Origin: Hyphomicrobiales bacterium
GTDB taxonomy: Bacteria; Pseudomonadota; Alphaproteobacteria; MED-G09
Assembly: GCA_028339975.1 (NCBI GenBank)
Contig: JAOLDG010000008.1
Location: 2,154 to 66,153 of the forward strand
Length of the DNA stretch: 64,000 nt
Direction: 5' to 3'
Position numbers and translations under genes: made by a program. Below are positions 1 to 16,627 of the stretch, piece by piece (position 1 is the first letter of the stretch; the number at the start of each line of letters is the position of its first letter). The notes beneath the pieces are model-generated. The model had not been told where the DNA came from. It did no database searches and saw only the letters and a program-made list of their open reading frames with translations.

Positions 1-456
1 ATAGGTAATTATTTAGATTATTCATTGGAGGCTAGTCTCGAAATGATAAAAAGTGAGCATTCTCTTCTCGGCCTTGGTGATGGAGGTGCTCATTGTGCAA
101 CGATTTGTGATGCAAGTTTTACAACTCATATGCTTACTTTTTGGGGTAGAGACAGGACTAGGGGAGAAAAACTAGAACTTCCATGGATCATAAAATCTTA
201 TACCCAAGATAATGCTCTCGCCATTGGACTTAAAGATAGAGGTGTAATATCTGAGGGAATGAAGGCGGATATTAATATAATAGATTTCGATAATTTGACT
301 CTTTATTCACCTGAATTGCTTTACGATCTTCCTGCCGGAGGAAAAAGATTGGTTCAGAAAGTTGATGGCTATAAATATACTATTGTTTCTGGAAGTGTAA
401 CTTATAAAGATGGTGTCTCAACCGGTGAGTTACCAGGAAGGTTAATAAGGGCGTAA
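1..456 (+). CDS. C-terminal part of an amidohydrolase (N-acyl-D-amino-acid deacylase / D-aminoacylase-like); the 5' end lies outside the window
   Basis: The reading frame is open from base 1 and in frame with the ORF at 25. The C-terminal motifs (DGGAHCATICDASFTTHML, KADINIIDFDNL) are typical of the amidohydrolase-3 / D-aminoacylase C-terminal domain. Confidence 0.55.
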   Translation: MGNYLDYSLEASLEMIKSEHSLLGLGDGGAHCATICDASFTTHMLTFWGRDRTRGEKLELPWIIKSYTQDNALAIGLKDRGVISEGMKADINIIDFDNLTLYSPELLYDLPAGGKRLVQKVDGYKYTIVSGSVTYKDGVSTGELPGRLIRA

Positions 457-462
457 GTTAAA

Positions 463-990
463 ATGATTATTCAAAAAAATTCTATTTTTCAACAAGCTTA
501 CTTTGTTAATAGTATTGAAGAATCTGTAAAAAGTTGGAGCAAGACATTTGGCGCCGGACCATTTGTTTTTACACATCACCATAAAACAGACAAATTTGAG
601 TATAGAGGTACCCCGCAAGAGTCTGATGTTTCCTATGCCTTCGGGTATCTTGGTGATACTATGATCCAGTTTATTGAGCAGCATGATGAAACACCATCCA
701 TCTATAGGGATATGTATAAACGGGGGGAAGAAGGCTTTCATCATATAGGTATTTTAGTTTCAGATTTTGACGAGGAGCTTGATAGATATTTAGATATGGG
801 TTTTGACTTAGCCTGCCGGTTATGGGCGGATGGAGTGGATGCGGCCTATATCGATACAAGATCTTTGAATGGAGTATTTACAGAGCTTCATGGAGATCCG
901 AATCATATTTTAGGAGAGTTTTCCCGCTGGAGGAGGGCTCATGAAAAATTTGTACCTGGAGATTCTTATAAACTAGAAAGAGTTAAATAA
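463..990 (+). CDS. VOC (glyoxalase/bleomycin-resistance/dioxygenase) family protein
   Basis: 175-aa protein with a duplicated beta-alpha-beta-beta-beta-like pattern (FHHIGILVSDFDEE) typical of the VOC superfamily. An SD-like AGG lies upstream. Confidence 0.5.
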   Translation: MIIQKNSIFQQAYFVNSIEESVKSWSKTFGAGPFVFTHHHKTDKFEYRGTPQESDVSYAFGYLGDTMIQFIEQHDETPSIYRDMYKRGEEGFHHIGILVSDFDEELDRYLDMGFDLACRLWADGVDAAYIDTRSLNGVFTELHGDPNHILGEFSRWRRAHEKFVPGDSYKLERVK

Positions 991-1011
991 AGGAGAACTA
1001 ATTTTAGGTTA

Positions 1012-1584
1012 CTAAATATAGTCTGGCTCATTTCCTTTATTCCATTTTATATTACACCCCATACTAGGATGCTGATCTTTTGAAGTAGGTATGCCATTAT
1101 TGATATTGTTAATTACTTTCCGTAAATCAATTCCGGTTACTGGTATTTTGTTACCGGGACTACTTTCATCAAATCTACCTCTGTAAATAAGCACCTTTTT
1201 ATTATTGAAAACGTAAAATTCAGGCGTACACATTGCTTGAAATTTCTTTGCAACAGATTGATTGGTGTCGATTAAATACGGAAATTCATATTTAAACTCA
1301 ACAATATCATTTTTCATCATATGAATATTATCCAAAGGATAATTATCCATATCATTTGAGTTGATTGCAAATACTCTAAAGTTATCTCTATGCGCCTGAT
1401 TTAATAACTCAGACATTTTTTCTTTAATATTAATTACATACGGACAGTGATTGCAAATAAATGAAAAAATATAACCCTTAAAGCTTCCTTCACTTATTTG
1501 GTATTTTATTTTATCTGTATCCATTAGTAATGATGAGGGTATTTTACTATCAAGTGGCAGCATAGTCGAATAAGTAAGGCTCAA
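1012..1584 (-). CDS. thioredoxin-fold protein (AhpC/TSA / thiol-disulfide oxidoreductase-like) with a CxxC motif
   Basis: Carries a CNHC(P) active-site-like motif in a thioredoxin-like context (FICNHCPYV). It is ~190 aa. Confidence 0.5.
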   Translation of the reverse strand: MSLTYSTMLPLDSKIPSSLLMDTDKIKYQISEGSFKGYIFSFICNHCPYVINIKEKMSELLNQAHRDNFRVFAINSNDMDNYPLDNIHMMKNDIVEFKYEFPYLIDTNQSVAKKFQAMCTPEFYVFNNKKVLIYRGRFDESSPGNKIPVTGIDLRKVINNINNGIPTSKDQHPSMGCNIKWNKGNEPDYI

Positions 1585-2162
1585 CTATCTTTTAACACTT
1601 TGTTATAAAGCATATCAATTCTATCTTGGCCCCAATATCTTTCATTTTTATATAAGAATGTAGGAACACCAAATACTTTATTTTCTCTCATAATTTTAGT
1701 AAACGACTTTAATCTTGTATCATAACCTTCATCATCCATAGCGCTTATTGCTAAATCCTTGTCAAATCCAATTTTAATACATATTTCCTCAATTACTTCT
1801 TTATTTCCGATATCAAGTTTTTCTTTCCATCTAGCATCAAACATTTCAATCATGAAGCTATCACCAAATCCATTTTCTTGAGCACATAGCCATGAAGCAT
1901 GAACTTTTGGCCAGTTTGCTTCTTTTGATATAGTTTCACTAACATTTTCAATTCCAATTTCTTTAAAAAGACGTTCGCAATCTTCAAATAAGTAGGATCT
2001 CTTATATTCGTTCTCTGAAGCAGTCGAAAGAAATTTTATAAGCTCTTTTGGAAGGTAGCAAACCGGAATATAGTCTAATTTTATTCCTCTCTCTTGAGCT
2101 TTTTTTACACCCAAATATCCATAAGGGCTTCTGAAATTAAAAAAACATGTTATTTTTTCCAC
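1581..2162 (-). CDS. DsbA-like thioredoxin-domain protein (2-hydroxychromene-2-carboxylate isomerase family)
   Basis: The N-terminal FNFRSPYGYLG matches the HCCA-isomerase / DsbA-like signature (FDFxSPYSYL). There is a 4-bp overlap with the upstream gene, consistent with an operon. Confidence 0.6.
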   Translation of the reverse strand: MEKITCFFNFRSPYGYLGVKKAQERGIKLDYIPVCYLPKELIKFLSTASENEYKRSYLFEDCERLFKEIGIENVSETISKEANWPKVHASWLCAQENGFGDSFMIEMFDARWKEKLDIGNKEVIEEICIKIGFDKDLAISAMDDEGYDTRLKSFTKIMRENKVFGVPTFLYKNERYWGQDRIDMLYNKVLKDS

Positions 2163-2210
2163 TTTAATCCTCCGTATACATTAAGAATATATTATAAATA
2201 ACTGATTTAT

Positions 2211-2660
2211 TTAAAATTTTTCTAATTTTAATGTGATTTCTTGATTGATTTCATTAAATATAAAAACTGCATCATCCCATTTAGGGGGACCAAACTTACC
2301 TTTTGCATTATTTGAGAAACCAAATGGCTCCTTTGGTATGCCAATAAAATTTCCTGATATTACTCCATTCCCATCAAAATCTTGAAAGCCTGAAACAACA
2401 TAAGAACCAAAAGGAATATCAAGTTTTACAATACCTTTTTGATTCACTATTTGCGTCACTGCACCAGTAAGAACCTTTTCTGTATTAAGTTTTTTATTAA
2501 CTTTTGCCTTACCAAAATTTTCCTTTTTATCGTAAATGCCAACAAGTGCTATACCTTTATTATAATCACTCTCTACGTTTATTGTTAAAATTTCAGCAAC
2601 TAAAACAGAGTTTAGAATAAAAAACACAATTAGCGATTTTAATATAGTTTTGTAAATCAT
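2211..2660 (-). CDS. secreted DUF2141-family protein
   Basis: Has a signal peptide and the conserved GIPKEPFGFSNN motif typical of DUF2141. Confidence 0.5.
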   Translation of the reverse strand: MIYKTILKSLIVFFILNSVLVAEILTINVESDYNKGIALVGIYDKKENFGKAKVNKKLNTEKVLTGAVTQIVNQKGIVKLDIPFGSYVVSGFQDFDGNGVISGNFIGIPKEPFGFSNNAKGKFGPPKWDDAVFIFNEINQEITLKLEKF

Positions 2661-3149
2661 TTACTTTACCATTAATTTCTTGGCAACATCTGCAGCTATT
2701 TTAGCACAATTTTCATCATTACCACCGCTATCGCCAGAAACACCAACCCCGCCAATATGATAACCGTCATCTAAAATAATTGGAACTCCACCTTTAATAA
2801 GTATTACACCTGGTAATGTTAATATTCCATTATTTGCAGAGTCTCCTTCAAATGCCATATCTCTTAATTCAGCAGTAGAATATGGTAAGCCCGCCGATGT
2901 CTTGCCCTTTAGACGCGATATCTCTTCAGATGCTGGATAGGTTCCATCCATTGATGAGTAATATTTTAATGATCCAGGAGATTCGTATATTGCAATATTT
3001 ACTTTCCAGCCGCTTTCTTTAGCAAGATTTATACAGGAATTTGCCATTTTTGATGCAATATCAAGTGTCAAAACTGGTTTTGTTGTAATTTCAGCATTTA
3101 AATTTATTGAAACTAGTATAATTACAAAAAAAGATAATATTCTGTTCAT
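2661..3149 (-). CDS. GlcG/HbpS-like (DUF336) heme-binding protein, secreted
   Basis: Has a signal peptide. The C-terminal GGVPI...GGVGVSG motif is characteristic of the GlcG/DUF336 family. Confidence 0.6.
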   Translation of the reverse strand: MNRILSFFVIILVSINLNAEITTKPVLTLDIASKMANSCINLAKESGWKVNIAIYESPGSLKYYSSMDGTYPASEEISRLKGKTSAGLPYSTAELRDMAFEGDSANNGILTLPGVILIKGGVPIILDDGYHIGGVGVSGDSGGNDENCAKIAADVAKKLMVK

Positions 3150-3232
3150 TTAATTTCCCCAAAGTTATAAATATGTTTATATTTGAAACTATAATTTTAA
3201 ATATAACAACAATAAAAATAATAGAGGTTAAT

Positions 3233-4663
3233 ATGAGCATACAAGCAACTGCTGCCAAATTACTTTTTAAGCTTCCAAAGCCAATATTAAGTAAAATTAT
3301 GAAGTCAATTCCTAAAAGTAATAATCCTCATGATCTTGTTGAAAAGCCATGGCACTTAAAGGGTAACTGGGCTCCCGTTAAAGATGAAATTATTGTAGAA
3401 AATTTGGAAATCAAAGGAGAAATTCCAAAGGAAATTAATGGAATGTACTTGAGGAATGGAATGAATCCAGTTTCTGGTCACAGTGATCATTGGTTTTTTG
3501 GAAACGGAATGCTTCATGGAGTTAATATTAGTGATGGCAAGGCCTCTTATATGAACAAGTATGTAAGGACACCTTACTTTGATGAAGATATGGGAATGAT
3601 GGAGAGTTCTTTTGATCTAAAAGCATCTCCTGCCAACACCCATGTAATAAGACATGCGGGTAAGATTTTAACACTTGAAGAAGCTCATCTTCCTTGGATT
3701 GTAAATGAAAATTTGGATACCATAGATTCCTATGATTTTGATGGAAAACTTGATGGCCCAATGACAGCTCATCCTAGGGTATGCCCAGAGACTGGAGAGC
3801 TTTTATTTTTTGGTTACCAGATGATGAAGAAACCATACTTAACCTATCATAGGGTTTCAAGGGAAGGTGTATTGGTTCAGTCAGAAGAAATTGATATACC
3901 AAGACCTGTTATGATGCATGATTGGAATATAACAAGAAATTATGTTGTATTTATGGATTTACCATTAGTATTTGATATTAATGACGCCGTTAGCGGGTCT
4001 GATCCATTTGGGTTTAAACCTGAGTGTGGGGCCAGGTTAGGTGTTATGCCAAGAAATGGATCTAACTCAGATATTAAATGGATTGATATAAATCCATGTT
4101 TTGTTTTTCATCCAATGAATGCATATGAAGAAGATGATAAGATAATTCTTCACGTTTGCAGACAAAACAAAGCTATGGTTGGTGGTATGGATGAAATTTA
4201 TGGAGGAGAGGATTCCACTGGAAAACTATGGAAATGGACCATTGATTTAACTTCTGGAAAATGTTCTGAAGAGCAAATTGACGATAGGCCATGTGATTTT
4301 GCAAGAATTGATGACAGATTGGTAGGCCTTAAGGCTAAAAATGGATACGCAATGGCCTTGGATGAAAAAGCTGAGACCTTAACATTTGATCAATATTTAT
4401 ATAAATTTGACTTAGAAAATAATAAACGTATTGATCATGATTTAGGCAATAATGTTTTTGGGGGGGAGCCAATTTTTGTTCCTAAATTTGATAATTCTTC
4501 AGAAAATGATGGTTGGGTTATGGCAATTGTGTATGATGCAAATATTTCTAAATCAAAATTAATCATCGTTGATACTGAAAACTTTGATAAGAAGCCTATT
4601 AGTGAAATTATTTTACCTCAAAGAGTACCATTTGGAGCGCATGGCAGTTGGCTGTCTAATTAA
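3233..4663 (+). CDS. carotenoid cleavage oxygenase (RPE65 / apocarotenoid dioxygenase family)
   Basis: Carries the four-His-containing motifs of the family (HDWNITRNYVVFMDLP, FHPMNAYEE, FVFHP, GAHGSW). The start is chosen at the ATG at 3233, which is preceded by GAGGT; the track ORF begins earlier at 3173. Confidence 0.8.
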   Translation: MSIQATAAKLLFKLPKPILSKIMKSIPKSNNPHDLVEKPWHLKGNWAPVKDEIIVENLEIKGEIPKEINGMYLRNGMNPVSGHSDHWFFGNGMLHGVNISDGKASYMNKYVRTPYFDEDMGMMESSFDLKASPANTHVIRHAGKILTLEEAHLPWIVNENLDTIDSYDFDGKLDGPMTAHPRVCPETGELLFFGYQMMKKPYLTYHRVSREGVLVQSEEIDIPRPVMMHDWNITRNYVVFMDLPLVFDINDAVSGSDPFGFKPECGARLGVMPRNGSNSDIKWIDINPCFVFHPMNAYEEDDKIILHVCRQNKAMVGGMDEIYGGEDSTGKLWKWTIDLTSGKCSEEQIDDRPCDFARIDDRLVGLKAKNGYAMALDEKAETLTFDQYLYKFDLENNKRIDHDLGNNVFGGEPIFVPKFDNSSENDGWVMAIVYDANISKSKLIIVDTENFDKKPISEIILPQRVPFGAHGSWLSN

Positions 4664-4667
4664 ATAA

Positions 4668-4973
4668 ATGAAAGCATTGATTTATAAACCATCAAAATCT
4701 GTCACCCAGTCTGGAAGTAAAAAAACTGATAAATGGATTTTAGAGTTCTCCAGATCTTCAAGTCCTACGATTGATCCACTAATGAAATGGACATCCTCAA
4801 CAGATACACAGAATCAAGTCAAAATGAAATTTAGTTCAAAAGACCTTGCAGTTGCCTATGCTGAAAAAAATTCTATTGAGTACAGAGTTAAAGAACCAAA
4901 AAAATCTAAAACTCGACCTAAGTCATATTCAGATAATTTTTCTTATGATAAAAAGACACCTTGGACACACTAA
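4668..4973 (+). CDS. ETC complex I subunit conserved-region protein (NDUFS4-like)
   Basis: ~100 aa, with the LEF...PLMGWTSS.D...QV.L.F.....A..YAEKN..EY pattern of the alphaproteobacterial NDUFS4 homologue (pfam ETC_C1_NDUFA4). Confidence 0.7.
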   Translation: MKALIYKPSKSVTQSGSKKTDKWILEFSRSSSPTIDPLMKWTSSTDTQNQVKMKFSSKDLAVAYAEKNSIEYRVKEPKKSKTRPKSYSDNFSYDKKTPWTH

Positions 4974-4991
4974 CTTTATCGAGAATCTTAT

Positions 4992-5549
4992 ATGGATACT
5001 ATCAAAACATTACTTACAAGAAAATCATCTCCAAGGCTAGATGAACCGTCGCCATCACCAGAAGAGCTTGATTTAATCTTTCAATCTGCCTTAAGGGCTC
5101 CTGATCATGCCGCGCTAAAGCCATGGAAATTTATAAAAGTTTCTGGTGAGGGAAGGGGTAAGCTAGCAAAAGCTTCTCTAGAAGCTCTTAAAAAAATTAA
5201 TCCTAGTAAGGCCAATGAAAACGAAGAAAAAATTCTTAATGCCCCCTACAGAGCACCATTAATAATAATAGTTGTTGCATCAATTAAAGATCATCACATC
5301 GTTCCAGATATTGAGCAAATTCTATCGGCTGGCGCTGCAGCCCAAAATATATTAATTGCAGCCCATTCTATGGGTTATTCTGGTATTTGGAGAACAGGAC
5401 TTATATCTTTCAATAAAGAGATTTCAAGATCTTTTGATTTGGATGATAATGATGTTGTTATTGGTTATTTATATATAGGAACATCTGAAAAAGAAATGAC
5501 ATTACCGCCAAAATCTAATATTAATGATTTTGTTATAAACTGGGATTAG
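4992..5549 (+). CDS. nitroreductase family protein
   Basis: Has the RKS.R signature near the N-terminus, and its overall ~185 aa length matches the NAD(P)H nitroreductase fold. Confidence 0.7.
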   Translation: MDTIKTLLTRKSSPRLDEPSPSPEELDLIFQSALRAPDHAALKPWKFIKVSGEGRGKLAKASLEALKKINPSKANENEEKILNAPYRAPLIIIVVASIKDHHIVPDIEQILSAGAAAQNILIAAHSMGYSGIWRTGLISFNKEISRSFDLDDNDVVIGYLYIGTSEKEMTLPPKSNINDFVINWD

Positions 5550-5570
5550 TAAACTGTAAAAGAGGGTAAT

Positions 5571-5999
5571 ATGAAAGAAACAAACAAAGAAGATTTAGCT
5601 AAAATTCAAGAACTTTTCGATACATGGGACGCAGCTGTTGAATCTGGGGATAGAGATGGCTACGTAAGTGGTTTAGATGAGAATATTACCCTGATGCCTC
5701 CTGGTGGAGTTGTTATCAAAGGAAAAGAAAATTATAGAGAATTCTTGGGTCCAGTTTTTGAGTCAGCAACCTATAGGGTGGAGAACAATAGTCCTAAAAA
5801 AATTGAAATATTCGAAGACATTGCAATAATTCATTCACACCTTACTGTTTACTTAACTTTTTTAGAAGGAGCGTCATCCATAGCATCCGAAGGGGCAATT
5901 CAGAACAACGTTTCTGAAGGAAAATACCTTGATGTTCTTAGAAGGCAAGAGGATGGATCTTGGAAATGTTTAGTTCATACTTGGAAGCAGATCAGTTAA
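5571..5999 (+). CDS. SnoaL-like / DUF4440 (NTF2-fold) protein
   Basis: A 142-aa protein with the NTF2-like pattern (IQELFDTWDAAVESGDRDGY ... GSWK). Confidence 0.45.
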   Translation: MKETNKEDLAKIQELFDTWDAAVESGDRDGYVSGLDENITLMPPGGVVIKGKENYREFLGPVFESATYRVENNSPKKIEIFEDIAIIHSHLTVYLTFLEGASSIASEGAIQNNVSEGKYLDVLRRQEDGSWKCLVHTWKQIS

Positions 6000-6639
6000 T
6001 AAACTCTTTTTCTGGGTTTTCATATTTTATAAATATTGATTGCTGGTCGTGATCTTTCCAAGTCATCAAGACCTCTGTTTCATGCTCTAAATAAATCAAT
6101 TTGATTTTATTAAAAAAATTCCAAATAGAGTTTTGATATTCGTTTATTTTTTTTTCAATATCATTATCACTAAGACTAGGAAATTCTTTTTCTAAATCAA
6201 TTTTAAGATTCAATCTGTAATCCAAGTATTCATTTAATACCTGACTTGCCTCTATGCTATCTTTGCCAAAATCATTAATCATTTTATCATGTTTTTGTGA
6301 TAAAAAGACAAGACTTTCAACATATGACAAATACTTTTTAGGGTTTTTTTGTTTATATTTTTTAGCTTCTTTTAGTGAATTAAAATAAAGCTCAAGTATA
6401 TTTTTTGTAATAATATTCAATTTTAAATTATTTTTTAAATTTTCTGTGCAACTTTCTTTTAAATTTATTAGATCAGATAAATCATGTGTCCAATTGAAAA
6501 TCTTAAAGGCCTTTATAAAGCCTATAAAGAGAGCATCACTGTAAAATTTTGATAAATCGTTTACCATTAAAGCCTTTCTAATTTTAATTAATATAAATTT
6601 AATTGATGATATCAGTAAAGTATTTTCTTGATACCCCAT
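5992..6639 (-). CDS. hypothetical protein
   Basis: A 215-aa lysine-rich ORF with no recognisable motif. It is the last gene before the tRNA hotspot. Confidence 0.35.
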   Translation of the reverse strand: MGYQENTLLISSIKFILIKIRKALMVNDLSKFYSDALFIGFIKAFKIFNWTHDLSDLINLKESCTENLKNNLKLNIITKNILELYFNSLKEAKKYKQKNPKKYLSYVESLVFLSQKHDKMINDFGKDSIEASQVLNEYLDYRLNLKIDLEKEFPSLSDNDIEKKINEYQNSIWNFFNKIKLIYLEHETEVLMTWKDHDQQSIFIKYENPEKEFIN

Positions 6640-6767
6640 CAGTGAATTTTAAACAAGATATTGCATCTTACTCATTATTGATTTAACTAGTATTTTTCTC
6701 CTAGTTATTTGACTTAATTATTAAATTTATTGGTTTTTATGTTAAAGTTATTAGTAAGTGAATTTGT

Positions 6768-6844
6768 GGTCCCGTAGCTCAGCTGGATAGAGCAACGGAT
6801 TTCTAATCCGTAGGTCAGTAGTTCGAATCTACTCGGGATCACCA
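6768..6844 (+). tRNA. tRNA-Arg (anticodon TCT)
   Basis: The 77-nt cloverleaf can be read directly. The acceptor stem is GGTCCCG/CGGGATC, the D-arm is GCTC-AGCTGGATA-GAGC, the anticodon stem is ACGGA/TCCGT with loop TTTCTAA (anticodon TCT), and the T-arm is AGTAG-TTCGAAT-CTACT, with an encoded CCA. Confidence 0.85.
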
Positions 6845-6850
6845 TTTAAA
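6800..6850 (+). repeat. attL core: 3' 45 nt of tRNA-Arg plus TTTAAA, the 51-bp direct-repeat partner of 15114-15164
   Basis: The string TTTCTAATCCGTAGGTCAGTAGTTCGAATCTACTCGGGATCACCATTTAAA is identical at 6800-6850 and 15114-15164. Confidence 0.85.
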
Positions 6851-6898
6851 TTTCATTGTAATACAACAGTTATCCTTAGTAAATAGCCAAATAACCAT

Positions 6899-6928
6899 CT
6901 GTACGTACATTCATCTCTAACTGTACGT
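6899..6928 (+). promoter_or_regulatory. putative integrase arm-type binding sites (CTGTACGT x2, 22-bp spacing) at the attL arm
   Basis: CATCTGTACGT is at 6896-6906 and AACTGTACGTTT at 6919-6930. Their reverse complements (ACGTACAG x2) are at 14945-14972 at the other end of the element. Confidence 0.5.
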
Positions 6929-7045
6929 TTTTATACCTTGATATACATTTCAATACATTTATACTTATTATGTTGTATAAAACGTTGTACAAAAATAATA
7001 ATAAAGCTTATTTCGGACAGTTAATCCGAAATTTGAGCATACGAG

Positions 7046-9190
7046 GTGTTACTGGTGACGAAATATCTAAATGTTCCTAAGATTAAAGAAAAGGATTATT
7101 CTATTAAGTACAAAGATGAGCCAATTTTTGTAATAGAACAATTCAGCAAGCTATCATTACGAATAGGTAAATTTAAAATCGCCTATTATTACAGAGATAG
7201 AAAGCAATCAATTAAACTTGGTGAGCATCCTCATCTATCCTTATATGAGGCTCGTCAAAAAGCTCGTGAGATTGAAGGCGAAGTTTCAGTTCCAGAACAA
7301 TACAGGGATAAAAAAACCCTCTTAGAAGCAATTTATGGGAATCCAGAGCTTTACTGTCAAAACTCTTACCACTCAAATGAACATATAAGAGAGAGTGTAT
7401 TAGAAGGAAGCTATCTGGCTCAATATAAGGATAGGACAAATACATCCTCTTTTATTGATAAGAAAAACAAAATTCGCCTTCTTGCTGACCATTATGTTGA
7501 TATTAATAACAACTGCTCGATAACTATTGATAAGCTTGATGGCTTGGAAATAAAGAAAATTGCAGAGGATTATCATTTAATTGATGGTAAATCCGCATTA
7601 GCTTCAAAAAGATTATTTAATGAATGGAAAACTTTCTTCAAATGGTTATCAAAAAATGAAGGTATTTCAAATATTCTTGCTGACCAAGAAGTAAGCAAAG
7701 TTAAAGTTCGGGTTAAAAGGCGTGAATATAGAGATCCAAGATTTAAACCTGAGGAAGTAAACTCTTTAATTAATTCTTATGAACAAATGAATGAGCCTTA
7801 TAAATGGATACATCCGTTTATGATGTTTACAGGTAGAAGAATGGCATCTGTTTTACGATTAGAGAAAACTGATATTGATTTCGATAAGAATATTATCAAT
7901 TTTAGAGCTGATAATGAAAAAATGTCTATGAATAACTCAGACAGCATTCCACCTGCATATACTGAGATTCCTATGTGTAAATCCTTAGAATCTCTTGTTA
8001 AAGATAGAATACTTCCTTTTAAACCTGATAATAAGTTTCTATTCGCTCATCCAACTATTAAAGATATTCCCCTTAAGGTTAACGATAGGGAGATGCGAGA
8101 TAAAGTTAGAGAGGTAACAGGTATCAAAAACTTTACCTACAAAGATATAAGAACCAACGTTAATACAGCCATGATTAATCTGGGTATAGACCTTAGAATA
8201 AGGCAATTCATATTAGGACAGAAATCAGAGAAGGTTGAGAGTAGGGAGCTACAGCAACCCAGATCATTATCTGTAAATGAGATATTCTATGATAAAAACA
8301 CGCATCTTGAGGAAAAAAGAGAAGCACTTAACAAGATTGAAGGCCTTTGGATTAAATTTTCAGAACAAAATCATAAATTAGATGATAAAATTAGTGAAAT
8401 AACTGAGGATGATGAACTTTCTTTTATTCTTAAGAAAGACTCAGATTTAGAAATAATTAACGATTATCTGAAAAGTATAAAATCTAAGCCAATAACAAGT
8501 ATTAGCGAGTATTTAACTAAAAGAGATGGTCTACATCATGAAGCATCCGATTTCATGCATTGTGTTACACAATTCTTTTTGTACAAACAATACGTTGATT
8601 TTTTAAAGGCAAAAAAACATTTTACTAGCGGTGTTAAATTATACTTAAAAGCATTTATTTACAGACAGTTAAAAACTAATCCTAATTATCATGGTCGTGA
8701 TTATTTAAAGAACTGGAATAAATTGCAAAGCCTAGTTGCGGAATTACCCGCTTCTCATTGGAAAAATAAATACGATTATGAGAAATTAAAAATAGCTAGT
8801 CAAATTCACTATTATCAAGGTGAGTACAATAATTGGAAAATAAAGAAGGAAAAACCTGATTGGACAAAGATTAAAAATTACGATCCAAAAGAAGATGGAT
8901 CTAAAGGTGAGCTTAATGACATACTTTCAGGTAAAGATGGTTTAAATTCAGCGATAGAGCGGTTTAATAATACTTTTTTAAAAGACGGAAAAGATCCTTC
9001 TCCAGAAACATTAGGGCATAGTAAAAGAGTGTATTTGAAATATTATGAAAGTCTAAAAGCCCTAGATTCTATCGCTTTTGTGCAACTATATAACTACCAA
9101 CTTGTTGCTGATATACCAGATGAAAAATTTGAGAGAATGATATCTTCTTCGCAAAGAGATGCTGTTAAAGAAATGGCTAAAGAGTTATAA
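7046..9190 (+). CDS. int: tyrosine-type integrase/recombinase (P4-like N-terminal arm-binding domain) with a long C-terminal extension
   Basis: Starts at GTG. The N-terminal DUF4102-like arm-binding motif is GEHPHLSLYEARQKAREI. The catalytic region contains TGRRMASVLRLEKTDIDF (box I Arg), YKDIR (the HxxR box with His replaced by Lys), and LGQKSE...NEIFY (candidate Tyr). It lies directly next to the tRNA attL. Its 714 aa are about 300 aa longer than typical integrases. Confidence 0.75.
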   Translation: MLLVTKYLNVPKIKEKDYSIKYKDEPIFVIEQFSKLSLRIGKFKIAYYYRDRKQSIKLGEHPHLSLYEARQKAREIEGEVSVPEQYRDKKTLLEAIYGNPELYCQNSYHSNEHIRESVLEGSYLAQYKDRTNTSSFIDKKNKIRLLADHYVDINNNCSITIDKLDGLEIKKIAEDYHLIDGKSALASKRLFNEWKTFFKWLSKNEGISNILADQEVSKVKVRVKRREYRDPRFKPEEVNSLINSYEQMNEPYKWIHPFMMFTGRRMASVLRLEKTDIDFDKNIINFRADNEKMSMNNSDSIPPAYTEIPMCKSLESLVKDRILPFKPDNKFLFAHPTIKDIPLKVNDREMRDKVREVTGIKNFTYKDIRTNVNTAMINLGIDLRIRQFILGQKSEKVESRELQQPRSLSVNEIFYDKNTHLEEKREALNKIEGLWIKFSEQNHKLDDKISEITEDDELSFILKKDSDLEIINDYLKSIKSKPITSISEYLTKRDGLHHEASDFMHCVTQFFLYKQYVDFLKAKKHFTSGVKLYLKAFIYRQLKTNPNYHGRDYLKNWNKLQSLVAELPASHWKNKYDYEKLKIASQIHYYQGEYNNWKIKKEKPDWTKIKNYDPKEDGSKGELNDILSGKDGLNSAIERFNNTFLKDGKDPSPETLGHSKRVYLKYYESLKALDSIAFVQLYNYQLVADIPDEKFERMISSSQRDAVKEMAKEL

Positions 9191-9196
9191 CTTAAT

Positions 9197-9631
9197 ATGT
9201 CAGTTCCTTGTCCAAATCCAAAATGTGGAATACTTGAAGGCAGAAATTATGAAGGGGCTAACCCAATTCTCTTTTTTATTCCTTACATTGCTCCATGGCT
9301 CTGGTTTGATGCAATTATTCCTAGAGATAAAGATATTGCTCAAATTATTACCGAGTCAGACAGAGAGGATTGGGGTATCGACGATTGGGTTGAACTTGGT
9401 GTTTGCGATAGGTGTGGTTATAGACTTGGTGACCCACAACCATGGCAAAAGAATGTTAGAATTAAAAGATTTATTGTATGGATACTAATAATCCTTTTTT
9501 TCTCTTGGGCGACTATTTACTCACTGCTAGAGGATAGTGGTTATTTTTGGGTTAGTTTATTTTTCCTATTCTTTTCCTTAATCTATTTTCGTTCTAACGA
9601 AATTTACGAATTATCGGATGATGACGAATAG
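9197..9631 (+). CDS. hypothetical zinc-ribbon membrane protein
   Basis: Has CPNPKC...CDRC (a CxxC pair) followed by two predicted TM helices and an acidic tail. It begins 7 nt after the integrase stop. Confidence 0.4.
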   Translation: MSVPCPNPKCGILEGRNYEGANPILFFIPYIAPWLWFDAIIPRDKDIAQIITESDREDWGIDDWVELGVCDRCGYRLGDPQPWQKNVRIKRFIVWILIILFFSWATIYSLLEDSGYFWVSLFFLFFSLIYFRSNEIYELSDDDE

Positions 9632-9636
9632 GTTAT

Positions 9637-9790
9637 GTGTAGCCGAGACAAACACGCTCTTGGTCGATAAGGGGATGAAGAGGTACAGAAGATAACCTAG
9701 GAAAACCCTATCAGAGCAAAACTCGACTACACAACGCTATCTGGGAAACAGGGTGAAAAAGATAATCCCCATAACCCAGACGCAAGCTAT
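9637..9790 (+). ncRNA. candidate structured RNA or recombination/packaging element (GC-rich intergenic region)
   Basis: There is no ORF here, and the local GC is ~48% against a ~29% background. A long-range helix pairs GTGTAGCCGAG (9637-9647) with CTCGACTACAC (9722-9732), 10 of 11 bp, and encloses nested hairpins (CTCTT/AAGAG and GATAACCTAGG...CCCTATC). A second helix pairs CTGGG with CCCAG at 9741-9778. Confidence 0.3.
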
Positions 9791-9944: not shown

Positions 9945-11711
9945 TTACGTCGTTACAATATCGTTGATTGCTGAGAAGCCTTGAATGTGTCGAATACCAA
10001 CATCTACAAATCCAAAGATAGTCACTATCACATCACCTCGTGTTGAGAATGTGTAAGGGTCGACTATAAGTTCTGGAGCACCAAACTCACCAATAATAAC
10101 ATTACTCCAATCACCAAAGATGAGAGCTGATAGATTAGCACCAGTTCCTTTCGTTAGAGTGTTTGGAACGTTCTGGGATTGTAAATATCTATATCCTAGA
10201 AGCTCGTCACGATTGTTAGAGATGTATGTCGCATCAGTACCAGCCGGATTTCTCAATGTTGTTCTAAGTTTATTAGCAACCTGAGAGTTCGTGACAAATG
10301 TACCTCGACCAGTTAACAGGCCGTTAGCTGTATCAACGTTGGCAATCATAGTAGAGATATTATCATAAGTGATAGCACCACCATTTGCACCAGATGAAAC
10401 AAGAGATAGACCAGTAGTATTTAGAATACCTGTTGGTTGAACTCCACCAGTTCCATTAATAACGGCTTTATCTATCGCTTCTGATACGCCCATCATTAAA
10501 TCATTCCTCATTAAGTTTTCTAGAGGAGGTAACATCTGGGTTAGAGCTTGTCTGGTATAAGACACTCTAGATGATATTCCATTAGGACTTAGTGTGAGCT
10601 GGTCAAAAGTAGGTGTTGATTCAGTCGCTGGACTTCCTTCAGCTACCCATTCACCAGCAGACGCTAATGTCTTTCTTGGAATTGCTACGTTCTGATTCAG
10701 TCCAGCCATAGTGGTTGCACCAGCATCAATAGAAACATTGAAAGGTCTTAAAACATCAATGAAGGATTGAGGCATATACTCTGTACCAACTAGATTTGAA
10801 GTATTAGTTGTATCGAGTAGAGTTCTTTGTCCAAAAGCTGATGGTGGAACAAATGCACCAGTCGTTGTTCTATTTTGGCGAGTTGCTATTTCTTGAGACA
10901 TTTCTCTCTCAAAACCAGCATTAGACCAATCTGAATTTAACTGAGCTGATATCACTTTGCCTATTGAGTATTCTCTTTTAGACATTGCTTGGTCTTGTTC
11001 AAAGCTAGTGTAAGCAGAAGCAATAGGCTCTGTCTTAACTCTATCTAGTAATTTTGAACGGAACTCATCAAGAGGCATATCTTTCATTGCACAATCTGTA
11101 GCAAATTCGATTTGTCTGTGATGCTTTCCTAGGGCTAGTATTTCTTTAGAAGCTCTTTCATTGGATGCTTCTTTTATTTTAGTTTCGATTTTATTTTCCA
11201 TAATGGATTCCTTTGGTTTTGGATATGATCTTTGAATACCAATACTGTGATCTGCCGGTACTCCAACAACTGACACCTCGTAAGGTTGCCATGATGTAAC
11301 GAGTTGATTGCGACCAACTTCTTTGACTTCATCGATTGAATATCCGATTGATAGAAAGCGTAAGACCTTTGACTTGATGTCATTCCAAACTTCGGTTGCT
11401 CTGGTACTTTGTCCAAGTCTCAGAGTTCCTCTTAGTTTTTTATCCTCAGATATTCTAACGTTCTCAACTGTCCCAATGGGATCTTGTTGATCATGTCCGA
11501 ATAGAAGGGGTAAGCCTATATCCGCTCTTTCCATGTTTATTGCTGATGGTTCATGAACCAGTATCTCGTTATATTCACCACGAGGAACTGGTAACTCAGA
11601 AGAAAGACTGGCTTCAATAGTCCGGTTTTCTCCAGCACGTTCATCTAACTCAATGAGCAGAGTCCTGTGGTTTAAGTCATCACGAGCATCAGACACATTT
11701 TCATGAGTCAT
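9945..11711 (-). CDS. fused prohead protease (S78/U35, HK97 gp4-like) and HK97-fold major capsid protein
   Basis: The N-terminal ~170 aa carry LPLLFGHDQQDPIG and SIGYSIDE, matching the prohead-protease His/Ser regions. A coiled-coil linker follows, then a C-terminal MCP-like region (...IFGDWSNVIIGEFGAPELIVDPYTFSTRGDVIV...). An AGGAAA SD lies 8 nt upstream of the ATG. GC is ~43-45%, well above the surrounding ~29%. Confidence 0.75.
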   Translation of the reverse strand: MTHENVSDARDDLNHRTLLIELDERAGENRTIEASLSSELPVPRGEYNEILVHEPSAINMERADIGLPLLFGHDQQDPIGTVENVRISEDKKLRGTLRLGQSTRATEVWNDIKSKVLRFLSIGYSIDEVKEVGRNQLVTSWQPYEVSVVGVPADHSIGIQRSYPKPKESIMENKIETKIKEASNERASKEILALGKHHRQIEFATDCAMKDMPLDEFRSKLLDRVKTEPIASAYTSFEQDQAMSKREYSIGKVISAQLNSDWSNAGFEREMSQEIATRQNRTTTGAFVPPSAFGQRTLLDTTNTSNLVGTEYMPQSFIDVLRPFNVSIDAGATTMAGLNQNVAIPRKTLASAGEWVAEGSPATESTPTFDQLTLSPNGISSRVSYTRQALTQMLPPLENLMRNDLMMGVSEAIDKAVINGTGGVQPTGILNTTGLSLVSSGANGGAITYDNISTMIANVDTANGLLTGRGTFVTNSQVANKLRTTLRNPAGTDATYISNNRDELLGYRYLQSQNVPNTLTKGTGANLSALIFGDWSNVIIGEFGAPELIVDPYTFSTRGDVIVTIFGFVDVGIRHIQGFSAINDIVTT

Positions 11712-12219: not shown

Positions 12220-12232
12220 TTAGGAAAAGGTA

Positions 12233-12655
12233 ATGAATAAAATACTTATAGCGTTAGTCATGGCAGTTGTGATGTGTGGAAATGTTTATGCTTGGACAGA
12301 GAGAGGTGAGCAGATTGATGAAGGGTTATATATTTCTCATTATTTCGATGAGCAGAATATTAGGCATCAGGGTAAATATCTCTGGTATTGGACTTTAATG
12401 AACATACATCGTGATGATAAACAAATTTATGGAAAAGGTGTAAAAAGTTGGCTTAATTATTGGAGAATAGATTGCAATCAGAGGACTAATGCAGTTTTTA
12501 AACTTGTTAAATATTCAAAGTTAGGTGGGCAAGGCAGAGTTCTTGAATCAGAAGATTATGAAGGCGGAGCTAATGCACAAGGCACTCCAAATACTTTTTC
12601 ATATATTATTCCAAATTCTCAAGGCGATTTCATAGCACAGTCTTATTGTAAGTAA
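12233..12655 (+). CDS. hypothetical secreted protein (cargo)
   Basis: Has an N-terminal signal peptide (MNKILIALVMAVVMCGNVYA) and is 140 aa. It sits inside the element, separated from the small membrane ORF by 13 nt. Confidence 0.4.
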   Translation: MNKILIALVMAVVMCGNVYAWTERGEQIDEGLYISHYFDEQNIRHQGKYLWYWTLMNIHRDDKQIYGKGVKSWLNYWRIDCNQRTNAVFKLVKYSKLGGQGRVLESEDYEGGANAQGTPNTFSYIIPNSQGDFIAQSYCK

Positions 12656-13464: not shown

Positions 13465-14283
13465 TCAATTTGCTATGCTCTTAAAAAGGTTGGTTGTTGT
13501 TTGTAAGTCTCGGTTATTATCGTGCCAATGCTGACCAATCTCATCGATTTCAAAGTCACTAAGATGACCCTTCCAAATATCATATCGCATTATGACATCA
13601 CCAGAATTATGCTTTTCTAGTTCCTTCCAGAATTCATTGAACTTATTTTCAGTAAAGGTCTTAGTCTTAGGCTTATCTGGATTTTCACCCCCATCAAGGG
13701 GAGGGTGAAAAGACTGATTAACTTCAGCATTAGTGTCTAATATATCTCTAGTTTCTTTTTTTTTATTCTTTTCTTCTCTTTTCTTATGCTTAAGTCCAAC
13801 TAACTCACTTTCCTTGTTTTCTGGGAAATTATCATCATCGCTATGTATAGGTTTGTCAGAGACTTGCTCAGAGTTTGTGGTCGACTTGTTGTCCTTTAGT
13901 AACTCATTGTATTGATCTAGTCGCTCTTTCGCCATTTCTCGTTTGGCTGTTGCACCTTTCTTGCCTTTTTCAACATTAGTGAGATGCTTTGCCATAGTTT
14001 CATAATATAGTTTTTCTCCGAATTCAAAGTAATATCCTTTATTGGGAACTTTCCTAAAGAATGGCTTTATAACTTCACATACTGCTTGATATTGTCTTGG
14101 ATCTAACTTGGTTCTATATAGAAACCAACTTTTATCATCCAAATTAACGGCCTTATATTCTTGCATCCATTGTGCATCTAATATGTCTCTTAAAGCTCCT
14201 CGCTCTATACCCTTAAGATGTCCAGTCATGTAATGAAATTCTGCTACCGGAAACGGCATCGTATGAAGTGTAATAGTAGACAT
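13465..14283 (-). CDS. DUF1376 (YdaU-like) prophage replication-associated protein
   Basis: The N-terminal FHYMTGHLKGIERGALRDILDAQW fits the DUF1376 signature (HL...E.GAYRRLLD). It is followed by a low-complexity lysine/glutamate-rich region. Confidence 0.55.
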   Translation of the reverse strand: MSTITLHTMPFPVAEFHYMTGHLKGIERGALRDILDAQWMQEYKAVNLDDKSWFLYRTKLDPRQYQAVCEVIKPFFRKVPNKGYYFEFGEKLYYETMAKHLTNVEKGKKGATAKREMAKERLDQYNELLKDNKSTTNSEQVSDKPIHSDDDNFPENKESELVGLKHKKREEKNKKKETRDILDTNAEVNQSFHPPLDGGENPDKPKTKTFTENKFNEFWKELEKHNSGDVIMRYDIWKGHLSDFEIDEIGQHWHDNNRDLQTTTNLFKSIAN

Positions 14284-14675
14284 TAGTTCTTAACCTTCTC
14301 GGCAACTGTCTGGGCTTGCGAACAAAACCTCATGCCTTTGTAGAGAAATGGTAAAAGATTGATCACAGGTCTACCCAAGTCGAACTGCTCTAATAAATCT
14401 TCCCTTTCATGGAAATAATGAAGTCTCCATCCATTACTTGATAACTCAAGAGCCATATAAGAGCTTATGCCTTTCTGGTAGTTCTCATGAATCATATCTA
14501 GGTTATCTAAATTAGCTATAACTTGAGCTGATAGATTGCTTGCATCTTGGACTTGCATACCAAAGCTCTCAAAGGTCGGAACTAGCTCACTCATCCAGAA
14601 ATTAACAATATTGATAGTTTCCTGAGGAAGATCATTAAAATCATCTGATTTAAGCATTAGACTTAATCCATGCAT
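14283..14675 (-). CDS. hypothetical protein, translationally coupled to the DUF1376 gene
   Basis: The track ORF extends to 14783, but that N-terminus overlaps the AlpA gene in another frame. An internal Met at 14675 or 14657 is the more likely start. The stop overlaps the start of the DUF1376 gene. Confidence 0.3.
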   Translation of the reverse strand: MHGLSLMLKSDDFNDLPQETINIVNFWMSELVPTFESFGMQVQDASNLSAQVIANLDNLDMIHENYQKGISSYMALELSSNGWRLHYFHEREDLLEQFDLGRPVINLLPFLYKGMRFCSQAQTVAEKVKN

Positions 14676-14880
14676 TAACTTCGCTTTCACGATACATAGC
14701 TTTGCACTTGTTATTAGGTCTCTTACTTTTTGGAAACAAACCTTCGCTTTCCCATCTCTGGATAGTTGCTGATGATTTACCAACTAAAGTCGCTACCTCA
14801 GTTCTTGATAGTAGGCGATTTTTAGTCTGACTAAGTTTTTCTAGTATTTTGTAAATTTCTGTTTCTAATTGTTTGTCCAT
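14650..14880 (-). CDS. AlpA-family phage transcriptional regulator / excisionase (HTH)
   Basis: A 76-aa protein with LLSRTEVATLVGKSSATIQRWESEGLFPKS...YRESEVNAWI, matching the AlpA/Xis-type HTH. It is the first gene inward from attR. Confidence 0.65.
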   Translation of the reverse strand: MDKQLETEIYKILEKLSQTKNRLLSRTEVATLVGKSSATIQRWESEGLFPKSKRPNNKCKAMYRESEVNAWIKSNA

Positions 14881-14944: not shown

Positions 14945-14972
14945 ACGTACAGATGAAGCTAAAAACGTACAG
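14945..14972 (+). promoter_or_regulatory. putative integrase arm-type sites at the attR arm (ACGTACAG x2)
   Basis: ACGTACAG occurs at 14945-14952 and 14965-14972, the reverse complement of the CTGTACGT pair at 6899-6928. The extended matches are CATCTGTACGT and AACTGTACGTTT. Confidence 0.5.
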
Positions 14973-15113
14973 TTTAACTTTGATATTGAAGTTACTTTGA
15001 GCGTAATGTATTACTTTAAACTACAAGTTATAGGGATTAGGTGTTGTACAGAACGATGTACAAAAATCGAGAAAGATAAGCAATTACTTACGTTTGACTA
15101 TGGTGTTTTATGG

Positions 15114-15164
15114 TTTCTAATCCGTAGGTCAGTAGTTCGAATCTACTCGGGATCACCATTTAAA
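15114..15164 (+). repeat. attR core: 51-bp direct repeat of the tRNA-Arg 3' end
   Basis: Identical to 6800-6850. The identity breaks immediately outside on both sides. Confidence 0.85.
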
Positions 15165-15243
15165 AATAGCCATAAACCAATATCCACCTTAACTTCTTTT
15201 CAAAAACTATAATGAAGTGATATTTATGTTGTTTTGACTAATT

Positions 15244-15900
15244 TTAAAGTAGGGACCAACCATAGAAAATGGATATAAAAATTGTATAAATAGCCAGAAG
15301 AATAACGTTGACAGGGTTTCCAGATAGTTTTGGTGTTTTTATTTGAGAAACATTTAATATTGCAAGACATATTCCGCTGGCACCAAGAAAAAATGAAAAA
15401 AATGTATCTTCAAAGCGCTCTGCAAACATAAATAAAAAAACTAGAATAATACTATTGTTATCAATGGCTAGGCCAGTGTATTTTGCATCGCTTGATAATC
15501 CAAAGGTGCTAAAATAACTTAATCTAATAGCACCAAAAACTAGCATTATGAATGCAGGAATTAAAAAGAGCGGATTAAAATTCGAATAACTTAATATCAA
15601 AATAGCGGGGGTGACTCCATAACTTACAATATCTATTAGTAGATCAAGTTGGCCTCCAAATTTTTGATCGTCACCTGTTCTTCCCTTTATTTTACGAGCA
15701 ATAAGGCCATCAGCCCAATCAAAGGCAACTGCCCAAATCATTCCTATCATTGCGGCTTCATATATACCTATTATCAGGAAGTATATTGCAAGTAGTGAGC
15801 AGCCTAAGCCTGCAAGAGAGCATATATTGGGAATATCTCCAATGTAAGACAGGATAGATTTTGTTGGAAACTTTGTTGATATTGATCTTTTAGTTGTCAT
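15244..15900 (-). CDS. CDP-alcohol phosphatidyltransferase family protein
   Basis: Has the D(x2)DG(x2)AR...G(x3)D(x3)D signature (DWADGLIARKIKGRTGDDQKFGGQLDLLIDIVSYG) and is a multi-pass membrane protein. Confidence 0.75.
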   Translation of the reverse strand: MTTKRSISTKFPTKSILSYIGDIPNICSLAGLGCSLLAIYFLIIGIYEAAMIGMIWAVAFDWADGLIARKIKGRTGDDQKFGGQLDLLIDIVSYGVTPAILILSYSNFNPLFLIPAFIMLVFGAIRLSYFSTFGLSSDAKYTGLAIDNNSIILVFLFMFAERFEDTFFSFFLGASGICLAILNVSQIKTPKLSGNPVNVILLAIYTIFISIFYGWSLL

Positions 15901-15993
15901 AGCAAGTAATTTAACCTAATATGTAAAAGCATAATTTTATGTTAGATTTCTAACACTTTGCTATCATCATTTATGAGGTAGTAAAAGGAAAAA

Positions 15994-16500: not shown

Positions 16501-16583
16501 TTTATATTCAATGTTATGATATATCCGCACAAGAGTTTCCCTCAAGCATGTAACTAGAAATTGCTTACGCTATAAAAATTAAA

Positions 16584-16627
16584 TCAGTAGATTAGAAGTT
16601 CAAATCTTCTCGGGATCACCATTTAAA
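16584..16627 (+). repeat. degenerate relic copy of the tRNA-Arg 3' end (old att site)
   Basis: TCAGTAG...AGAAGTTCAAATCTTCTCGGGATCACCATTTAAA aligns to the tRNA T-arm and acceptor (AGTAGTTCGAATCTACTCGGGATCACCATTTAAA). There are 3 substitutions, two of them compensatory in the T-stem (AGAAG/CTTCT). The tRNA 5' half is absent. Confidence 0.55.

Follow-up and report, generated by a model that had tools for sequence, protein, structure and literature searches.

What does a tyrosine integrase gain from a domain of about 250 residues placed behind its catalytic domain? The question is raised by an open reading frame (ORF) at 7046..9190, forward strand, of the 64,000-nt stretch of Hyphomicrobiales contig JAOLDG010000008.1 analysed here (the window). 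The ORF lies beside a tRNA-Arg(TCT) gene, at one end of an element of 8.3 kb. A preliminary description of the locus had presented it as a P4-type integrase with divergent catalytic boxes and a long C-terminal extension. We read the gene as encoding a functional tRNA-Arg(TCT) integrase with a tail that controls recombination through protein-protein contacts, and we give this explanation as a whole a probability of roughly 0.55. Taken by itself, the proposal that the tail is a protein-protein module, controlling how the recombination complex is assembled, how active it is or when it acts, is a tentative one, a possibility rather than an expectation.

Domains and active site of the integrase

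The ORF was confirmed. It encodes 714 aa when read from its GTG, and all motifs quoted for it previously are present, namely TGRRMASVLRLE (box I, residues 262-273), YKDIR (365-369), LGQ (390-392) and NEIFY (411-415). As for the start, the 714-aa frame does exist, but the true start is probably the GTG at 7055, which gives a protein of 711 aa, because a GAGGTG Shine-Dalgarno sequence lies 6 nt 5' of it (7043-7048, overlapping the upstream GTG at 7046) and homologues begin at the equivalent codon. Residue numbers used here follow the 714-residue ORF from GTG 7046. The gene is divided as follows (AF2, AlphaFold2; pLDDT, predicted local distance difference test):

7055..9190, forward strand: integrase gene, encoding 711 aa if started at GTG 7055 (mechanical ORF start, 7046)
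7055..7309, forward strand: probable arm-binding (DUF4102-like) domain, residues 4-88 (PF13356, 3ju0 profile match, Foldseek)
7310..7735, forward strand: core-binding domain, residues 89-230 (AF2 helical bundle, Foldseek, always basic)
7736..8350, forward strand: catalytic domain, residues 231-435, with R265, S268, K292(?), K366, R369, Q392 and Y415 (PF00589, alignments)
8351..8431, forward strand: variable linker, residues 436-462 (low identity, indels, pLDDT <50)
8432..9187, forward strand: orphan all-alpha C-terminal domain, residues 463-714 (AF2, profile and structure searches)

The first 430 or so residues had been described as P4-type, beginning with an arm-binding region; that they are a tyrosine integrase about as large as P4 Int held true. 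PF00589 matched residues 232-394 (E=7.8e-10; 39.2 bits against a Pfam cut-off of 27.1), and Arm-DNA-bind_3/DUF4102 (PF13356) matched residues 31-80 with 24.1 bits, which is under its Pfam cut-off of 27. The protein also matched PHROG_1 integrase (E=2.4e-20), while NCBIfam gave Xer-type integrase matches alone over the whole protein, all of them stopping at residue 394. In the arm-binding region, the PDB profile match to 3ju0 was weak (E=0.3) and Foldseek retrieved HPI/HAI7 (3jtz/3ju0; probability 0.93/0.87), the region being poorly modelled and of low confidence. The core-binding domain was modelled by AF2 as a helical bundle (pLDDT 70-90). With the full-length AF2 model, itself of low confidence, Foldseek matched Tn1549 Int, XerA and lambda Int at probability 1.0, and Tn1549 Int, XerA, lambda Int and XerH over the range of 0.93-1.0; IntI was also retrieved. 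The N-terminal part thus aligned to XerA in sequence and matched recombinases in structure, as had been asked of the catalytic fold. Arm-binding, core-binding and catalytic domains are basic in each family member. Residues 4-435 behave as an arm-binding, core-binding and catalytic tyrosine-recombinase unit of the size of P4 Int, and by fold and context the protein clearly belongs to the tyrosine recombinases.

The active-site positions were assigned from alignments to XerA, P4 Int and P0008, a canonical outgroup used in the catalytic alignment:

R265: Arg-I, in TGxR (aligned to XerA, P4 Int and P0008)
S268: position of the Glu/Asp at Arg-I+3 (aligned to XerA, P4 Int and P0008)
K292 (probable): beta-hairpin Lys, the sole invariant Lys of the loop, 2-3 residues off the XerA/P4 Lys
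K366: position of the His of HxxR (aligned to XerA, P4 Int and P0008)
R369: Arg-II (aligned to XerA, P4 Int and P0008)
Q392: position of the His/Trp of LGH (aligned to XerA, P4 Int and P0008)
Y415: putative Tyr nucleophile, invariant, followed by LEEKR...W435 as P4 Int has LDERR...WW

All seven residues are invariant across the family. In the HMMER alignment with XerA (5hxy), H-V-L-R pairs with K366-D-I-R369 and LGH with LGQ392, so that the divergence of both boxes noticed earlier is real; Ser268, at the Glu/Asp position, is a third deviation that had escaped the preliminary description. The tyrosine does lie further from box II than usual, 23 residues separating Q392 from Y415 against 10 between His and Tyr in the P4 Int sequence, i.e. 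a 13-residue insertion. Y415 falls outside the hidden Markov model alignments, and the structural model is of low confidence there; a helix LEEKRxxLxxxxxxW435 follows it directly. The offset of K292 from the XerA/P4 Lys fits the 5-residue tolerance given by Gibb et al.

The R-K-R-Y core (R265, probably K292, R369 and Y415) thus appears to be kept, and all three substitution-tolerant positions appear to be replaced. In Cre, Tyr and Lys are strictly required, while Glu176, His289 and Trp315 tolerate many substitutions (Gibb et al. 2010, PMC2943603); the equivalent positions are conserved at 79-92% (PMC2943603). Because S268, K366 and Q392 occupy just these tolerant positions, they do not exclude membership or activity, and the active-site set, as far as alignment tells, is unusual yet compatible with activity. 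If active, the integrase would be a natural counterpart to the results of Cre mutagenesis.

The C-terminal tail and its family

After W435, 279 residues follow: the linker 436-462 and then a domain of about 250 residues (463-714). The linker is 19-30% identical to those of three non-identical lineages, contains indels, is modelled at pLDDT <50, and is acidic in the window protein, P0001 and P0004. Modelled alone, the tail region gave a pLDDT of 70.6, a predicted template modelling score (pTM) of 0.56 and about 11 helices, which suggests an independently folding all-helical domain on a flexible linker. Compared with the same three lineages, the tail shows 21-46% identity and the core 55-84%, the tail evolving 2-3 times faster. 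Its invariant residues are mostly hydrophobic or aromatic. Its net charge amounts to +8, +6, +1, -1 and -12 over five sequences, the window protein having +8 and an isoelectric point (pI) of 9.1.

The earlier remark that the extension, about 280 aa long, has no recognisable motif was confirmed. No consistent match was obtained against Pfam, PHROGs or PADLOC; the tail profile found nothing among PDB sequences, nor did its model by Foldseek in PDB and BFVD. Run exhaustively with HMMER over 1.84e9 representatives, the tail profile retrieved the family alone (P0003, P0004 and two P0002-type fragments). No helix-turn-helix (HTH) or other DNA-binding family or fold was matched in the profile and Foldseek searches, and the family and fold searches revealed no replication or enzymatic signature. 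That the tail might have arisen by duplication of the core-binding domain, or of another domain of the integrase, was also considered and was rejected at an hhalign probability of 0.1%. A conserved domain of some 250 residues without a relative in about 15 billion proteins may well point to a further layer of control or partner recognition in site-specific recombination.

Is the fused gene real? Word-indexed searches of 5.8e9 proteins, one of them extended to E<=10, found four related clusters (99, 62, 63 and 42% identity), all of 692-711 aa and with the tail aligned end to end. The extension is thus in frame in all four lineages, which answers the question of whether homologues would show it as a separate gene. 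The family occurs on seven contigs including the window, from independent samples (ENA and JGI assemblies; designated here by L-numbers where they have to be told apart). The tail frame has 0 stops, against 17-45 in each of the other five frames, and the chance of 275 codons staying open at the window base composition is about 5e-12. Among the three closer lineages the tail shows pN (nonsynonymous differences) of 0.31-0.37 against pS (synonymous differences) of 0.61, and dN/dS, the ratio of the corresponding rates, is at most about 0.3-0.4 with dS near saturation, against about 0.1 for the N-terminal part. The tail is under purifying selection. The alternative that two adjacent genes were merged through a frameshift or assembly error could appeal to Logan contig L006 (SRR25454913), which displays the region as three ORFs. 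This L001-type gene carries one indel and a stop at 99.8% DNA identity to L001, and it is a broken copy, whether pseudogene or sequencing error, not a set of ancestral split genes. A frameshift merge was rejected, the fused frame being intact in the window and six independent contigs at 42-99% protein identity, and a stand-alone tail homologue was absent among the 1.84e9 representatives; we regard the probability of an artefact as negligible.

The family is exceedingly rare. In the search extended to E<=10, two outgroup proteins (E~0.07) were all that appeared beyond the four family clusters, and these carry P4-type domains (PF13356 or PF22022 plus PF00589). A tblastn search with the integrase against 50,697 phage genomes gave no match at E<=1e-3. 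Scans of IMG/VR, GTDB and JGI metagenomes added one further copy, L088, of the L003 type, and conserved peptide patterns revealed no relative in IMG/VR or in GTDB representatives. The integrases appear to form a very small, deeply divergent lineage, distantly P4-like (IntSXT-type).

Attachment sites, proposed mechanism and alternatives

The region between the tRNA gene and the integrase gene, and the opposite end of the element, contain the following features:

6768..6844, forward strand: tRNA-Arg(TCT), the integration target (ARAGORN; Rfam tRNA, 70.2 bits)
6800..6850, forward strand: attL core, 51 bp, perfect direct repeat of 15114-15164
6899..6928, forward strand: CTGTACGT twice, at 6899-6906 and 6921-6928; candidates for arm-type sites on the arm next to int
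6938..6965, forward strand: promoter-like site TTGATA-16-TATACT for int (10/12 consensus match only)
6972..6994, forward strand: GTTGTAYAAAA in tandem, the two copies spaced at 12 bp; candidates for a second class of arm-type site
7014..7028, forward strand: CGGA-N7-TCCG palindrome in the int leader, mimicking the tRNA anticodon arm (6796-6810)
14945..15065, no strand assigned: attR-side arm, with CTGTACGT twice on the minus strand (14945, 14965) and tandem GTTGTACAGAA/GATGTACAAAA (15043, 15055)
15114..15164, forward strand: attR core, 51 bp, perfect copy of the tRNA 3' part
16577..16627, forward strand: third att core copy, degenerate (80%), bounding a decayed earlier island (15165-16627)

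The perfect 51-bp repeats delimit the 8.3-kb element. The attL core, within which the 3' part of the tRNA lies, begins with the first base of the anticodon loop and ends 6 nt beyond the tRNA 3' end; a 24-nt probe from the tRNA 3' end had 0 matches in 100 shuffles. In the window as well as in L001-L005 and L088, tRNA-Arg(TCT) is located directly 5' of the integrase gene in the same orientation. The T-stem of this tRNA (L001 9757-9775, L002 166-184, window 6816-6834) differs between loci by compensatory pairs, occurring as CAGTAG/CTACTC, CAGAAG/CTTCTC and CAGAGG/CCTCTC, and the degenerate third repeat of the window bears the L002-type T-stem.

The CTGTACGT repeat occurs four times in the 64 kb, against 0.29 expected, always within the att arms; two direct copies are found per side, in opposite orientation between the sides, and one copy is kept in L001-L004. 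The GTTGTAYAAAA tandem pair is likewise present on both arms (6972-6994 and 15043-15065), and its copies co-vary per locus, as GTGGTA/GTGGTA in L001, GTGGTG/GTGGTG in L003 and GTGGCT/GTGGCT in L005. The window, L001 and L002 have the -10 region TTTATACT in common, and L003 departs from it at a single base. The CGGA-N7-TCCG pattern matches the window twice, at the anticodon arm and in the int leader, against 0.06 expected. The leader copy is found 5' of int in L001-L004, L006 and L088 (e.g. L001 9935-9949, L002 363-377, L003 328-342), not in L005, i.e. in three of the four lineages. From these patterns we infer that the arm repeats would be arm-type sites and the leader palindrome a pseudo-core operator for int autoregulation.

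According to the model proposed here, the integrase would bring an attP core together with the part of tRNA-Arg(TCT) that reaches from the anticodon loop to the 3' end, and recombine the two. The crossover would fall in or near the anticodon loop, the stem CGGA/TCCG providing inverted core sites around a 7-nt overlap, and the element would supply a replacement 3' half of the tRNA. The repeats of both arms would build the intasome, the leader palindrome would give autoregulation and an AlpA-type protein would help excision. Through the linker, the tail would be anchored where the post-tyrosine helix ends, and this helix would contact the neighbouring protomer; the analogy is our own and is drawn from Cre-type recombinases, where the helix after the tyrosine packs on the neighbouring protomer. 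From there, the tail could act by self-association or by binding a partner from the element, the host or a helper phage. A more specific version, in which the tail binds a protein of the cell or of a helper phage and so gates directionality or the assembly of the tetramer, we hold to be quite unlikely. If it were true, such a tail would free the minimal islands of streamlined marine genomes from the need for some accessory factors, and the lineage would be a founding example of a sensor-coupled integrase.

Integrase activity is deduced from the anatomy of the locus and from the precedent of tRNA integrases: the perfect att repeats, differing cargo, tandem remnants, repeats confined to the arms and the pseudo-core in the leader would all be expected of a working system. 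The contrary case, a decaying or domesticated and catalytically impaired recombinase whose tail is functionless baggage of the lineage, could draw on three of seven non-canonical active-site positions, on the 13-residue insertion before the tyrosine and on the rarity of the family (4 clusters among 5.8e9). Between the window gene and its 99% twin in L002 there are 9 nonsynonymous and 3 synonymous differences, which also fits such a history, the numbers being too few for dN/dS. Against it stand the perfect 51-bp att repeats, the cargo that varies at the same site between lineages, the invariance of R265, K292, R369 and Y415, dN/dS of about 0.1 in the N-terminal part and <=0.4 in the tail, the conserved arm sites and promoter, and the fact that substitution has affected just those positions at which Cre is tolerant. 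Impairment is therefore highly improbable in our judgement.

As for the tail, we do not think that it is a DNA-binding, recombination directionality factor (RDF) or enzymatic domain. The preliminary description had suggested an RDF-like, replication or targeting function, and none of these gained ground. Replication is backed by no signature, the invariant residues being mostly hydrophobic or aromatic. Targeting is weakened by the net charge, which varies among lineages. It would mean that the tail is a second sequence-specific DNA-binding domain of targeting or architectural kind, which would share the two classes of arm repeats with the N-terminal arm-binding domain, one class each, and would possibly replace a host bending factor. 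Two distinct repeat classes on both att arms, the co-variation of the tandem pair with the integrase lineage, the integrase being the sole protein common to all family elements, and the basic tail of the window protein (pI 9.1) speak for it. However, the tail is unlikely to bind DNA because its net charge is not conserved (+1, -1 and -12 in other lineages), whereas the arm-binding, core-binding and catalytic domains, as bona fide DNA-binding domains, are always basic; furthermore, no HTH or DNA-binding family or fold was matched, and an AlpA-type protein or a host factor could equally bind the second repeat class. On balance this reading seems to us rather doubtful.

A tail acting as a fused RDF, or as a sensor that switches between integration and excision, for example upon helper-phage infection, would suit the resemblance of the window element to a phage satellite and the fast evolution of the tail, as expected of a partner-tracking domain. 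It would also suit the situation in L001, L002, L003 and L005, where no AlpA/Xis gene was seen in the readable parts, these covering the near parts of the islands with the far ends lying outside. RDFs are usually small and basic, and the tail is large and not consistently basic. A fused RDF is unlikely because the window element possesses a separate AlpA/HTH_17 gene (14650-14880) beside attR and the charge of the tail varies; the earlier suggestion is thus not supported, and we consider a fused RDF or sensor unlikely.

Several points weigh against our explanation of an active integrase with a protein-protein control tail. An excised form, or an attR in the other loci, was not found within the flanks on hand. 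The AF2 model is of low confidence at 339-490, so that the active-site placement of K366, Q392 and Y415 is tentative, and K292 is a provisional choice. MAFFT alignment with P4 Int gives an alternative register in which LQQ403-404 stands opposite LSH. The existence of two arm-repeat classes and two extra domains, together with the +8 charge of the window tail, keeps a DNA-binding tail alive. Finally, the role assigned to the tail is argued solely from its position, its charge and the absence of other signatures.

The element, its cargo and known systems

Between the integrase gene and attR, the element carries the following genes:

9197..9631, forward strand: small Cys-rich membrane protein, 6 nt past the int stop, part of the int module shared with L002
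9787-9942, reverse strand: 51-aa phrog_2616 gene
9945..11711, reverse strand: prohead protease-major capsid fusion (PF05065, E=5e-36; PF04586, E=5e-11; phrog_617, E=5e-111)
12233-12655, forward strand: Adhesin_E-like lipoprotein, moron-like (PF16747, E=4.6e-12)
13465..14283, reverse strand: DUF1376/primosomal-like protein (PF07120, 28 bits, cut-off 30.1; phrog_4118, E=4.5e-7)
14650..14880, reverse strand: AlpA/HTH_17 excisionase-type gene, 76 aa (PF12728, 30.8 bits, cut-off 27; PF05930, 24.5 bits, cut-off 21)

The Cys-rich membrane protein had no family match. With L002, an identity of 96.7% holds over the block 6765-9639, at whose end the similarity stops. A 30-bp stretch at its end (window 9610-9639, L003 2489-2518, L088 2435-2464) survives without the small downstream gene, and it may mark the boundary at which cargo is swapped. 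The capsid fusion is 33% identical to those of Roseobacter phages CRP-406/811/821 and Vibrio phage VP882. The fusion and the phrog_2616 gene are the only structural phage genes, and judging from this gene content the element looks like a capsid-bearing phage satellite, a tycheposon resembling phage-inducible chromosomal islands (PICI-like). The DUF1376 protein is a candidate for a replication function and the AlpA-type gene a candidate for a separate RDF; the latter ORF adjoins attR, overlaps the annotated start of ORF 14283-14783 and was missed by the mechanical 90-aa ORF list. A lipoprotein signal-peptide segment of about 60 bp (window 12226-12291, L002 9017-9082, L001 12932-12990) is common to otherwise unrelated cargo genes in three elements.

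In other members of the family, the cargo includes RND/CzcD efflux genes, RTX giants or a type I restriction-modification subunit. The decayed island next to the window element (15165-16627) retains 37 bp of an L005-type int-proximal arm after attR together with CDP-alcohol phosphatidyltransferase and cytidylyltransferase genes; by its organisation, this tandem remnant shows an earlier insertion at the same site. The chromosomal flank 5' of the tRNA (window 1-6640) is syntenic with L001 1-7325, on a 1.48-Mb JGI contig, at 67-79% DNA identity. It includes genes for RPE65-type dioxygenase, NDUS4, nitroreductase and DUF4440, and L001 has two extra genes ahead of the tRNA, encoding aldehyde dehydrogenase and methyltransferase. 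The host could be placed as an uncultured marine alphaproteobacterium, its TypA reaching at best 76% identity, to MAGs labelled Puniceispirillum or Alphaproteobacteria. The family marks a tRNA-Arg hot spot of such bacteria, at which a capsid-bearing satellite is exchanged as well as efflux pumps, restriction systems and RTX giants.

Among known enzymes, the closest ones are the P4 cluster of the IntSXT-type tyrosine recombinases (Smyshlyaev et al. 2021, PMC8138268). P4 Int and IntSXT share with the window integrase the order of an arm-binding (putatively DUF4102-type in the window protein), a core-binding and a catalytic domain, and insertion at a tRNA gene whose 3' end is regenerated. P4 Int is of similar size (440 aa against about 435 aa of the integrase unit) and has the post-tyrosine motif Y-x5/6-L-E-E-(K/R)-R...W in common with it, and both elements encode a small regulator of the AlpA/Vis type. 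On the other hand, the window integrase is only about 20% identical to P4 Int, from which it differs in three active-site residues (Ser instead of Glu, and Lys and Gln each instead of His), by the 13-residue insertion before Tyr and by a tail of about 275 aa. The similarity to the IntSXT subgroup is not significant, the nearest proteins outside the family in the 5.8e9 reaching only E~0.07.

The closest architectural precedent is IntB13. It is reportedly 657 aa long, with an uncharacterised C-terminal extension. The enzyme belongs to ICEclc of Pseudomonas knackmussii B13 and is described as a P4-family integrase 'with unusual long length' acting at the 3' end of a tRNA gene (review PMC5812530). 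Its element is conjugative, 100 kb in length and inserted at tRNA-Gly with an 18-bp core, in contrast to the 8.3 kb, tRNA-Arg and 51-bp core found here. The two extensions are not detectably related, in that the tail profile retrieved its own family alone from 1.84e9 proteins, no direct sequence comparison being part of this result. We found no account of what long extensions of P4-family integrases do. An addition past the catalytic domain is also known from RitC (PMC8138268), where it is a single extra helix as opposed to a multi-helix domain of about 250 residues behind a linker. Type IB topoisomerases (TopIB) share the R-K-R-Y core, and vaccinia TopIB, too, has a Lys three residues before Arg-II (Lys220; PMC2943603). 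That Lys, however, points away from the scissile phosphate, and the last pentad position is His rather than Gln.

In its organisation, the element resembles the tycheposons (Hackl et al., bioRxiv 10.1101/2020.12.28.424599). An inward-facing tyrosine integrase beside a tRNA, a major capsid protein (MCP) gene or adaptive cargo in the family elements (cargo/MCP/terS in the tycheposon scheme), a small candidate replication module at the opposite end, tRNA remnants of tandem insertions and a streamlined marine host were all found. Tycheposons are defined in Prochlorococcus by a lineage-specific integrase clade and hallmark genes, so the likeness is one of organisation and would point to tycheposon-like plasticity outside cyanobacteria. 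The previous statement that large tyrosine recombinases bearing additional domains typify some marine mobile elements was not borne out in the main text of that preprint, where neither 'C-terminal' nor 'large tyrosine' occurs. Given the great rarity of the family and the tentative role of its tail, the impact for the present is modest. Set against these systems, the case is one of an ordinary job, integration at a tRNA site, done by an atypical and rare enzyme with an orphan domain appended to it.

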